A DNA stretch of 64,000 nt from Minisyncoccota bacterium (GCA_041389105.1 JAWKSO010000004.1:20652-84651), one strand, 5' to 3'; counted from the stretch's first letter, positions 39,060 to 41,271 are shown. Notes: generated from the sequence alone by a model not told the origin. Numbers and translations: made by a program.

Positions 39060-39256
39060 TATTGTCTAGAAATATGAACCCCGCGACGCCTGGAGCGTCG
39101 CGGGTCTTCACCAAACCACGGCAGGTAAACCAAACCTGCCGGGCACTTCTGAGCATGCGAACACGCTCGTCTTACTTGTACCAAGATCCGGTCAAAAAGG
39201 AGGCCTGCTCTCTCTCCTAATTCCAGACCCTGGAACACTTCATTGTCTGTTGCATT
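39060..39256 (-). other. G+C-rich structured spacer between the peroxiredoxin gene and tRNA-Leu (possible sRNA)
   Basis: Minus-strand hairpins: GAGCGUG-UUCG-CAUGCUC, GGCAGGU-UUGGUUU-ACCUGCC, GACCCGCGACGC-UCCAG-GCGUCGCGGGGUUC. No credible ORF. Confidence 0.25.
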
Positions 39257-39844
39257 TATATCTTCCCACCAAGTCAAGCCCTGGTTTTAAAGGTATCACT
39301 TCCCGGTTCCCAACTCGCAGGACACACCTGTCCACCATTCTCTCTCACAAACTTAGCAGCTCTAAGCTTCCGCAAAGCTCTTTTCGCACTTCTTGCCGAT
39401 ATCGTTGTGATTTATCTCAATCGCTTTCAAAATCCCATCTGGGTCCACCAAGAAGGTTCCTCGAAGCGAAAGTCCTTCTTCTTCAATATACGTTCCGAAA
39501 ATATGACAAAGCTCGCTTGTCGGGTCAGCAGCCATCGGGAATTTAATCTACCTATTGCAGGAGATTTGTCGCGCCAAGCTTTATGAGCAAAAACAGCATC
39601 AGTAGAAACAGAGATTATTTCAGCGCCTTCTTTTTGAAAATCTTCATACATGTTTGCAAGTTCTTCTAGCTCTGTCGGACAAACAAAAGTAAAATCAGCT
39701 GATAGAAAAAATAGATAGCCCACTTTCCGAACAAATTTTCGTGTTCATCTTTTTTTCTTTGTCTTCGTGATAGGCATTGAAAGATATTTCTGGTACGGTG
39801 TCGCCTATTTGTAATGGTATGAGAGTATCTTGTGAATCTTGCAT
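39257..39844 (-). pseudogene. 2-Cys peroxiredoxin (AhpC/Prx family), frameshifted
   Basis: [19 protein letters not shown] (read across frames), [44 protein letters not shown]. Confidence 0.8.
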
Positions 39845-39892
39845 AGAATTTATTTATTTAAAAGATTAATGTTTTTATTATAGCAAATTAAA

Positions 39893-40372
39893 AGAAGAGG
39901 CCCGTCGCTCTCCCGACGGGCTCTTGTTTCCTTTAGGCAGTCCTAGACCGCTAAAACATGCAGGTTTTCCTGCTGGCAAAGAACGATTGGATTGTTTTAA
40001 GGGAAATACATCCCACCCACGTGACTTTGTTTTTACTCCGACTCCGTAAAAAACGGTCCGTGCATACACAGGGTTTATCCAAAACAAAGAATACGATAAA
40101 TATGCTCCAAATGCAAACGGACCACCCCCAGAGGATGGTCCGTCTTGCTCGCCTGATCATCTCGCGATGACTTCTTGAAAGCGATAACGAGCAATATGCT
40201 CTTCGGCAACCAAGTTACGGGGGTAGTTCCCAATATTCCCATTAGAGGGATTTGACAATGGCTTGTGTATTAAGACTAGTACATCCAATTGCTTGGATAC
40301 TTCTGTCTATATAGACAACTATCGTCTACGCGGGTAGAACCTTTCGCTTGACTCCGGTTAGTAAAGAGCATC
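39893..40372 (-). ncRNA. unclassified ~480-nt noncoding transcription unit (large structured RNA candidate)
   Basis: Promoter at 40380-40407, terminator at 39897-39922, no ORF over 70 aa in any frame. Hairpins with GNRA loops: AUCCAA-GCAA-UUGGAU, UCAUC-GCGA-GAUGA. Also ACGGACCA..UGGUCCGU, GCAGG-AAAA-CCUGC and the palindrome GTCTATATAGAC. Confidence 0.4.
39897..39922 (-). terminator. intrinsic terminator
   Basis: Minus strand: GAGCCCGTCG-GGAGA-CGACGGGCCTC followed by TTCTTTTAATTT. Confidence 0.6.
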
Positions 40373-40379
40373 TGATTAC

Positions 40380-40407
40380 AGTATACTTCTGGTGAATTAT
40401 TTGTCAA
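40380..40407 (-). promoter_or_regulatory. sigma-70-type promoter (minus strand)
   Basis: Minus strand: TTGACA (40407-40402), 16 nt, TATACT (40385-40380). Divergent from miaA. Confidence 0.5.
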
Positions 40408-40434
40408 CTACTTACAAAAATGTATTATGTGAAT

Positions 40435-41271
40435 ATGTCAAAACCTAAAATCTATGTCGTTTGTGGTCCCACATCCACAGGTAAATCAGACTACGCTGTG
40501 AAGCTCGCACTAAAAGCAAACGGCGAGGTTATTTCTGCCGACTCTCGTCAGGTTTATATCGGTATGGATTTGGGAACTGGGAAAATAACAAAAGAAGAAA
40601 TGAAAGGCGTACCCCACCACCTTTTAGATATTAAAAACCCGAATGAAGATTTTTCTGTTGAAGAATTTCAGAGTCTAGCTTTTGAAAAAATAGAAAATAT
40701 TATTTCGCGTGGCAAAACTCCGATACTTTGCGGAGGCACAGGATACTATATTCAATCCGTCACAGATAACATCATCTTCCAAGAAATAAAGCCGAACAAA
40801 GCTCTCCGCGCAGAGCTCGAAGAAAAAACCATTGAAGAATTAAAAGAAATCCTAGAAAAAATCCCAAAAGAAGAAGGTGTGAAAGTGGACACAGAAAACA
40901 AACGCCGACTTATCCGCGCGATAGAGATTGGCGAATCTATGGGAACTCTGGCGTGCGTGAAAAAAGGCGAGCAAAAATACGACTTTGAATTTATTTATCT
41001 AGACAAACCGGACGAAGAGCTAAAAGAAAGAATAGCATTAAGACTTGAGAAAAGGCTCGAAGCTGGAATGATAGACGAGGTTAAAAACTTGCATGCAAAT
41101 GGTGTGTCTTGGGAAAGACTAGAAAGCTTTGGACTGGAATACAAATACATCGCACTTTTTCTGCAAGGACAAATGGATGAAGAGACCATGAAAGAGGAAA
41201 TAAAAACAAAAAGCCGCCAATATGCAAAAAGACAAAGGACTTGGTTTAAGAGGGTTTTACCTAAGAATTAA
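40435..41271 (+). CDS. miaA: tRNA dimethylallyltransferase MiaA
   Basis: IYVVCGPTSTGKSDYAVKLA, ISADSRQVYIGMDLGTGKIT, YAKRQRTWFKR. Start taken at MSKPK. Confidence 0.9.
   Translation: MSKPKIYVVCGPTSTGKSDYAVKLALKANGEVISADSRQVYIGMDLGTGKITKEEMKGVPHHLLDIKNPNEDFSVEEFQSLAFEKIENIISRGKTPILCGGTGYYIQSVTDNIIFQEIKPNKALRAELEEKTIEELKEILEKIPKEEGVKVDTENKRRLIRAIEIGESMGTLACVKKGEQKYDFEFIYLDKPDEELKERIALRLEKRLEAGMIDEVKNLHANGVSWERLESFGLEYKYIALFLQGQMDEETMKEEIKTKSRQYAKRQRTWFKRVLPKN
41226..41257 (+). repeat. 32-bp perfect direct repeat, copy 1 (inside the miaA 3' end)
   Basis: AAAAAGACAAAGGACTTGGTTTAAGAGGGTTT, identical to 41601..41632. Confidence 0.95.

Follow-up and report, generated by a model that had tools for sequence, protein, structure and literature searches.

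The spacer between the peroxiredoxin gene prx (minus strand, start 39844) and miaA (plus strand) in a genome of the Patescibacteria, here called G000 (640 kb, 8 contigs), very probably encodes a real and functional non-coding RNA (ncRNA). The interval spans positions 39893-40407 of the window, the stretch of 64,000 nt that was analysed (G000:C4:20652-84651). The RNA is small, structured and an orphan, and no known family accommodates it. It represents a new RNA family, limited to a single family of bacteria, and in relatives RNAs of this locus mimic ribosomal RNA (rRNA). We favour, by a modest degree, the reading that the interval holds stand-alone ncRNA genes, members of an unclassified and fast-evolving family in the spacer between miaA and tRNA-Leu(CAA). 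Transcription would start from a strong sigma-70-type promoter, placed back to back with the promoter of a leaderless miaA, and would proceed away from miaA through two modules (Table 1). In the first, RNA-1, a closed domain of several hairpins would be followed by another hairpin and by a GC hairpin with U-rich tail; in the second, RNA-2, small hairpins and a pair of conserved single-stranded motifs would lie between a long-range helix and a terminator. The ultra-small genomes of the candidate phyla radiation (CPR)/Patescibacteria contain almost no spare DNA, and few ncRNAs are known from them beyond rRNA, tRNA, RNase P RNA and tmRNA.

An original prediction, made from the sequence of the window, had placed here one unclassified, large structured RNA of about 480 nt on the minus strand. 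Its promoter, TTGACA-N16-TATACT (P1), is present as described, and a GC-rich hairpin with a T-tract (T2) is found where the RNA was said to end. The T2 stem GCCCG..CGGGC is invariant, its inner pairs and loop are variable, and it occupies the same position in the relatives G005, G004, G001 and G002. The longest open reading frames (ORFs) between promoter and terminator measure 69, 69 and 70 aa, in agreement with the claim that none exceeds 70 aa. The hairpins named at that time were all recovered, namely AUCCAA-GCAA-UUGGAU, UCAUC-GCGA-GAUGA (40170-40157), the hairpin ACGGACCA..UGGUCCGU (here T1), GCAGG-AAAA-CCUGC (39973-39960) and GAGCA-UAU-UGCUC, as was the palindrome GTCTATATAGAC. The GNRA loops of the G000 hairpins are not conserved in relatives. 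Compared with shuffled sequences, the minus strand folds with z = -3.6 over the whole interval, -4.55 over the 5' 271 nt and -2.19 over the 3' 191 nt. The plus strand folds about equally well (z -4.3), so that folding energy does not tell the strand; the minus strand is assigned because of the conserved promoter, the T-tracts and the conservation described below.

Covariation in relatives, on which the original prediction wanted its RNA to be judged, was found in the helices of T1 and of RNA-2: the helices of T1 and of the RNA-2 core are kept by compensatory changes. RNA-2 of G000 contains a long-range helix of ACCCUGUGUAUGC (40074-40062) with ACAAAGUCACGUGGGU (40030-40015), followed by the hairpin GGGAUGUAUUUCCC (40014-40001), the unpaired, conserved CUUAAAACAAUCC and AAUCGUUCUUUG (39988-39977), the GCAGG-AAAA-CCUGC hairpin and T2. 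The RNA-2 sequences of G000, G005, G004 and G002 align well (alignment A4) and share the long-range helix (ACCCUGUGU.UGC with GCAA.GUCACGUGGGU), three hairpins and the unpaired motifs CUUAAAACAAUCC and AUCGUUCUUUG. Applied to these four sequences, RNAalifold reports compensatory changes in 11 of 45 pairs. When the alignment is extended to nine sequences, 95.4% of the cells are paired and 24 of the 45 pairs have changed on both sides, compared to 7.4 +/- 2.1 in shuffled alignments and at most 6 with slid partners; these counts lean towards structure, because the alignment was fitted to a model and the sequences are related. The RNA-2 core is conserved in two genera, and conservation extends to unpaired motifs such as CGUUCUUUG and CUUAAAACAAUCC, which are common to genera g1 and g4. 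The covariance model R2 comprises a T1-type hairpin, the long-range helix, a GGACAAC-hairpin-AAAAGC block and the unpaired CGUUCUUUG. G000 scores 182.6 bits with R2 but is a training member, and matches outside the training set are G001 (46.7 bits), G013 (32.9 bits) and G016 (23.2 bits). Profiles for nhmmer of the RNA-2 core were too insensitive, as judged also by the positive control.

The T1 helix has 12 pairs, all of them formed in each of 7-8 sequences, and 7 of the 12 have changed on both sides. In genera g4 and g2, a T1-like hairpin stands at the end of the RNA that is miaA-proximal or RNA-1-like, and T1 probably serves as an intrinsic terminator or else forms the 3' structure of RNA-1. 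Upstream of T1, a predicted long-range helix (40372-40363 with 40203-40196) closes the multi-hairpin 5' domain of RNA-1, and hairpin B (40194-40145) carries UCAUC-GCGA-GAUGA at its apex. The same three-part layout is predicted independently in seven congeners, G005, G004, G001, G007 and G003 among them, despite sequences that cannot be aligned, and the stem of the second hairpin reads UUGCYCG/CGRGCAA in the congener folds. For the 5' domain this layout is a matter of prediction, because its sequence is not alignable. BLAST found no relative of the 5' 230 nt in 401 genomes of the order. The earlier suggestion of a new RNA class thus holds in a limited sense: promoter and terminator are conserved and helices covary, and most of the 5' unit is specific to its lineage.

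BLAST and synteny show that each of the seven other species in the genus has an ORF-less spacer upstream of miaA, and high-quality congeners (96-97% complete) are ORF-less at the locus as well. Genera g1, g4 and g2, three of the four in the family, have such a spacer between miaA and tRNA-Leu(CAA), and in genus g3 a protein gene occupies the site upstream of miaA instead. All nine relatives compared have an equivalent of P1 at the same place (TTGACA-N16-18-(T/A)AnnAT, 10-12 of 12 consensus positions). A scan of metagenomes added only three close relatives, contigs whose MiaA is 89% identical; these keep the promoter, but their RNA cannot be aligned. A further observation concerns the metagenome contig L171, with 89% identical MiaA. 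At 1700-2500 on its minus strand it carries a run of hairpins capped CC-GUAA-GG, with CCCGUAAGG about five times, and this RNA has no sequence similarity to that of G000. Paralogues of the RNA were not found in G000, viral contigs gave no exact-pattern match that would point to a phage origin, and a literature search found no description of such RNAs in Patescibacteria.

We read the interval as two modules because of T1, the promoter-like hexamers that follow it and the swapped order in genus g4, and two units appear somewhat more probable than one. In g4 the RNA-2-like unit stands next to miaA and the RNA-1-like unit follows, each behind a strong, near-consensus promoter. The promoter of the RNA-1-like unit is almost identical to P1 of G003, and the unit ends in a T1-like hairpin in G019 and G013; in G013 it occurs alone. 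A single contiguous structured RNA of ~480 nt, with T1 as an internal element and no internal promoter, is a possibility to which we give clearly less credit, since the two parts occur in opposite order in g4 and no covarying helix joins RNA-1 to RNA-2. It is in line with the weakness of the possible second promoter P2 in G000 and most congeners (8-9/12), with the tail of T1, a poor U-tract that the scan did not call a terminator, with a full-length fold that pairs parts across the interval, and with the adjacency and co-conservation of T1 and the RNA-2 core in G000, G005, G004 and G002. Among congeners, P2 ranges from 8 to 10 of 12 positions, with a perfect TTGACA in G003. A TTGAC(A/T) hexamer follows directly after T1 in G003, G006 and G007, but belongs to the best -35/-10 pair only in G003 (10/12). 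RNA-2 may arise from its own promoter, by read-through or by processing, and co-transcription of both units in G000 is possible. Of the RNA originally proposed, the description as unclassified and structured stands, and it is restricted to one family; its size does not stand as well, two units being the likelier arrangement.

Table 1. Features of the interval and its surroundings (window positions), and the H33-H35 modules of relatives (positions within their loci).
Feature	Position	Strand	Remarks
Promoter P1, TTGACA (40407-40402)-N16-TATACT (40385-40380)	40380..40407	-	11/12 consensus; predicted start ~40374
RNA-1 (predicted), ~267 nt	40108..40374	-	z = -4.55 vs shuffles
Hairpin T1, ACGGACCA..UGGUCCGU (40143-40117) + tail UUGCAUUU	40108..40143	-	covarying GC helix
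Possible second promoter P2, TTTGCA (40117-40112)-N18-TATTCT (40093-40088)	40088..40117	-	8/12
RNA-2 (predicted), ~190 nt	39893..40081	-	alignments A4, A9; covariance model R2
Terminator T2, GAGCCCGUCG-GGAGAG-CGACGGGCCUC + T-tract	39893..39922	-	GC-rich hairpin
Divergent miaA promoter, TTGTCA (40401-40406)-N16-TATTAT (40423-40428)	40401..40437	+	10/12 consensus
prx extended -10 TGCTATAAT (39885-39877) + prx ATG ending at 39844	39844..39885	-	from sequence; outside RNA
H33-H35 module, L002	1300-1436	-	
H33-H35 module, L003	1300-1439	-	
H33-H35 module, L019	1582-1728	+	
H33-H35 module, L017	1738-1884	+	
H33-H35 module, L039	1101-1245	-	G019 unit, genus g4

Several points weigh against stand-alone ncRNA genes, in addition to the leaning of the pair counts mentioned above. 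The 5' domain of RNA-1, ~45% of the interval, had no homologue in any search and could be neutral sequence, its structure being given by folding energy alone. A search of 150 other genomes of the order with R2 gave no convincing match, so that the RNA-2 family is narrow. P2 of G000 scores at a level (8/12) that is common in AT-rich DNA, and an RNA that is unalignable at 89% MiaA identity also fits weak constraint. Strand, ends and number of transcripts are read from sequence signals only, and the G000 assembly carries indel errors in the form of homopolymer frameshifts, so single-base details of the RNA may be wrong. Part of this would be expected if the region were mostly non-functional, fast-decaying spacer, produced by insertions and rearrangements beside a tRNA gene and transcribed behind a promoter that is kept for other reasons, with hairpins that act as terminators or insulators between miaA, prx and tRNA-Leu. 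The rapid turnover and the orphan 5' domain of RNA-1 speak for such a spacer, as do its length, which varies from ~340 to 1100 nt across the family, the insertion of prx in only some species, and the TTGACA hexamer of P1, which doubles as the miaA -35. Terminator-like hairpins are indeed enriched in the region (21 vs 4.2 +/- 2.2 expected), and promoter-like sites are near chance (9 found in 4.1 kb vs 8.1 expected). Nevertheless we consider the decaying spacer unlikely, as genomes of only 0.5-0.8 Mb keep the spacer in three genera, and nine relatives have conserved the minus-strand -10 at the correct distance although miaA has no use for it. Moreover, compensatory changes maintain long-range as well as local helices, the unpaired motifs CGUUCUUUG and CUUAAAACAAUCC are shared between g1 and g4, and the rRNA-like modules of relatives keep their junction through covariation.

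So far no known RNA family accounts for the interval. At the Rfam gathering score only tRNAs were matched in the window. The cmscan search of both strands that had been proposed as a check, run on 39700-40600 with 4227 Rfam families at E <= 10, returned only chance matches to generic terminator-type models, and four homologous loci gave no match at E <= 1. OLE, ROOL, GOLLD, raiA and HEARO, whose models were without match in the same stretch at E <= 10, resemble the interval in being long, hairpin-rich ncRNAs that run from promoter to terminator, with GNRA-capped stems and no ORF. They differ in that here we probably deal with two smaller units, restricted to one bacterial family and with far lower sequence conservation. 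RNase P RNA and tmRNA are similar in length and have a comparably strong, housekeeping-like promoter. The idea of a divergent rnpB has to be given up, since the real RNase P RNA lies at G000:C1:173738-174044 and scores 120.4 bits, above the Rfam cut-off; the type A model (RF00010, with its GGAAAGUCC/ACAGAA motifs) has no match in the interval. Likewise tmRNA (RF00023) is without match here and is located at C2:77656-78037 (119 bits). Because both genes lie on other contigs of G000, the interval is neither of them, in agreement with the initial failure to notice RNase P motifs or a tRNA-like domain. The 6S RNA model (RF00013) found nothing at E <= 1 in G000, G001, G004, G005 and G007, where the predicted folds are multi-branched and not rod-like.

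Signal recognition particle (SRP) RNA was considered for RNA-1 and dropped, as hairpin B differs in its apical loop between relatives (GCGA, CUCGU, GAAA, UUCG), and the SRP RNA models RF00169 and RF01854 gave no match in 10 genomes of the family or 61 of the order. The absence of SRP RNA from the 61 sampled genomes of the order is an observation in its own right. An Ffh M domain was not found in any of five genomes of the order tested, and a search for the SRP54-type GTPase domain in 41 genomes yielded nothing beyond short matches to the P-loop, while the search controls were positive in 12-14 of 14 model genomes. The order has either lost the SRP pathway or has unusually divergent SRP parts, a choice that needs independent checking.

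A cis-acting leader or riboswitch that controls prx through the T2 hairpin, as had also been suggested, is very improbable. The RNA and prx have the same orientation, the terminator lies 50 nt upstream of the prx start, and the arrangement is common to G005 and G002. However, the RNA ends in a terminator, behind which prx has its own conserved extended -10 (TTTGCTATAAT in G005, TTTGTTATAAT in G002). In five congeners (G004, G001, G007, G006 and G003) the RNA locus adjoins miaA with no prx after it and precedes tRNA-Leu instead; in addition, no Rfam riboswitch matched and no alternative anti-terminator pairing was seen. Hardly any credit is left for a small hydrophobic peptide, for example a type I toxin, or a frameshifted gene remnant, encoded by the 69-aa ORF at 39951-40160 (N-terminus MIRRARRTILWGWSVCIWSIFIVFFVL), even though it has a basic N-terminus and then a hydrophobic stretch, has 18 of 29 residues in common with a G005 ORF and lies in an assembly with frameshift errors. 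The shared 29 residues correspond to the 3' arm of T1 and an AT-/T-rich linker, whose composition yields hydrophobic residues, and in alignment A5 the frame ends behind GWSVCILG in G001 and breaks off early in G006 and G004. The spacing of conserved blocks differs by 71 nt between G000 and G005, with indels that are not multiples of three. These broken frames and indels show that the interval is not coding; the six longest ORFs are without Pfam match, and the 96-97% complete congeners lack an ORF too.

In relatives, the locus carries pieces of 23S rRNA. The RNA-2 homologues of G001, G002, G004 and G005 contain an extra domain of ~135 nt before the terminator, which folds as a three-way junction with compensatory changes in 6 pairs. 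We take it to be helices H33-H34-H35 of 23S rRNA, judged from sequence (GAAG..GGGUAACAC..GGAG; AUGUUGAAAA in G019) and from the E. coli numbering. The model R1, built from this domain of the four genomes, with GAUGAAG, an GGGUAACACC-type H34 loop and GAACGAGCUGU as junction criteria, scores its training set at 136-159 bits and the G019 locus at 49.5 bits. Outside the family, R1 also matches a single site of 89 nt in each of eight genomes. Five of these loci were checked against Rfam and all proved to be 23S rRNA; in four the distance from its start is ~760-930 nt, and the fifth lies further in. G000's own 23S is matched at 32.8 bits, and alignments A2 and A6 show that the G000 locus lacks the H33-H35 module, with no R1 match in G000 outside real 23S. 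The protein uL2 and the assembly GTPase YsxC/EngB contact H33, H34 and H35a of 23S rRNA (PMC12560758).

A different piece is found in genus g2, where the RNA nearest to miaA copies 23S nt 46-232 (5.8S-like). The RNAs at loci L048-L050 (G008, G011 and G014) score 62-92 bits with the large-subunit rRNA model and 96-111 bits with model R3, which is defined by 23S nt ~46-170 (GAUGAAGGACG..CUGCGAUAAGC..GAUUUCCGAAUGGGG). Such copies of the 23S 5' domain are stand-alone RNAs that run from promoter to terminator. Extra copies of the nt 46-232 type also occur at other loci in G004 (L031 1470-1800, between ligA and gatC), G018 and G010, and altogether in at least 6 of 20 genomes of the family; G000 has a degenerate one at C4:~93860-94140 (minus strand), outside the window. 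RNA-1 shares position and terminator with the g2 locus and has a GAUYCC..GGGAA hairpin, and a visual likeness to the 23S 5' domain (AAAUCCCUCUAAUGGGAA) in G000 is not significant. A decayed mimic of that domain was rejected for RNA-1, since R3 with filters off matched none of the RNA regions of g1 or g4, G000 included. The RNA-2 core was likewise rejected as another rRNA piece, as R2 has no rRNA match in 151 genomes or in the G000 rRNA locus. The copies also do not indicate a split 23S rRNA, because G014 and G011 have a full 23S elsewhere, 5' region included, and G000 keeps H33-35 in its 23S. The G000 23S gene itself (L030, G000:C1:182223-185729) measures 3507 nt compared to a model of 2925 positions, which indicates ~580 nt of insertions.

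Because the homologous locus repeatedly carries structure-preserving rRNA copies, the RNAs might work in trans, binding translation proteins in the manner of a folded scaffold or decoy, and not as antisense regulators. Sites complementary to the CGUUCUUUG motif are no more frequent than composition predicts. For the RNAs of G000, a mechanism as protein-binding scaffold or decoy is a tentative suggestion that we hold to be less probable than its failure. RNA-1 and RNA-2 of G000 contain neither rRNA-like module, and the decoy idea is therefore borrowed from relatives; RNA-2 of G000 keeps the conserved core, with the rRNA-like module lost or never gained. More doubtful still is the extended version, in which the miaA/tRNA-Leu spacer would be a cassette site for a so far undescribed class of modular, trans-acting 'ribosome-piece' RNAs, whose core (RNA-2) and variable partner (RNA-1) gain and lose literal copies of protein-binding 23S sub-domains (H33-H35, domain I nt 46-232) that draw ribosomal proteins or assembly factors, for example uL2 or EngB, away from the ribosome, G000 being a module-less case. 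Leaders of ribosomal protein operons that mimic rRNA (L20, L1, L10) offer a comparison, since there, as in the RNAs of relatives, an rRNA site is imitated off the ribosome. In contrast to these leaders, the RNAs of relatives form separate genes, each running from a promoter to a terminator of its own, and their copies are long, near-literal paralogues and not minimal mimics, while the G000 RNA is without a module by both R1 and R3. A conserved, strongly promoted locus whose structure persists through the turnover of its sequence offers a concrete candidate for RNA biology specific to a lineage. These organisms have a single rRNA operon and few assembly factors, and the locus may help them to buffer or regulate components of the ribosome. 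In annotation, neither an rnpB-like gene nor a gene leader should be called in such spacers.

The neighbouring genes need some correction. The miaA ORF is listed from 40420 and has a second Met (ATG) at 40435, with which the MiaA N-termini of G005 and G004 (MSKPKIYVV) align. ATG 40435 is therefore the probable true start, and the listed ORF likely begins 15 nt too early. The miaA -10 stops 6 nt ahead of this ATG, which would make the mRNA probably leaderless or near-leaderless, and the miaA -35 overlaps that of P1 face to face. In G000, prx (39257-39844, minus strand) is broken at least two times compared to the intact 193-aa gene of a congener, and the breaks are single-base homopolymer indels relative to congeners. 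Together with a marker completeness of 63% in the 8-contig assembly, this indicates long-read indel errors rather than real pseudogenes. Beyond prx, a third small hairpin unit is seen at 39060-39200 of the window (minus strand), directly upstream of the tRNA-Leu(CAA) promoter (CTAGACAATAA), with the conserved motif GUGGUUUGGUG followed by a terminator. An equivalent stretch precedes tRNA-Leu in G007, G006, G001, G004 and L171, and in G000 prx is inserted between this unit and RNA-2.

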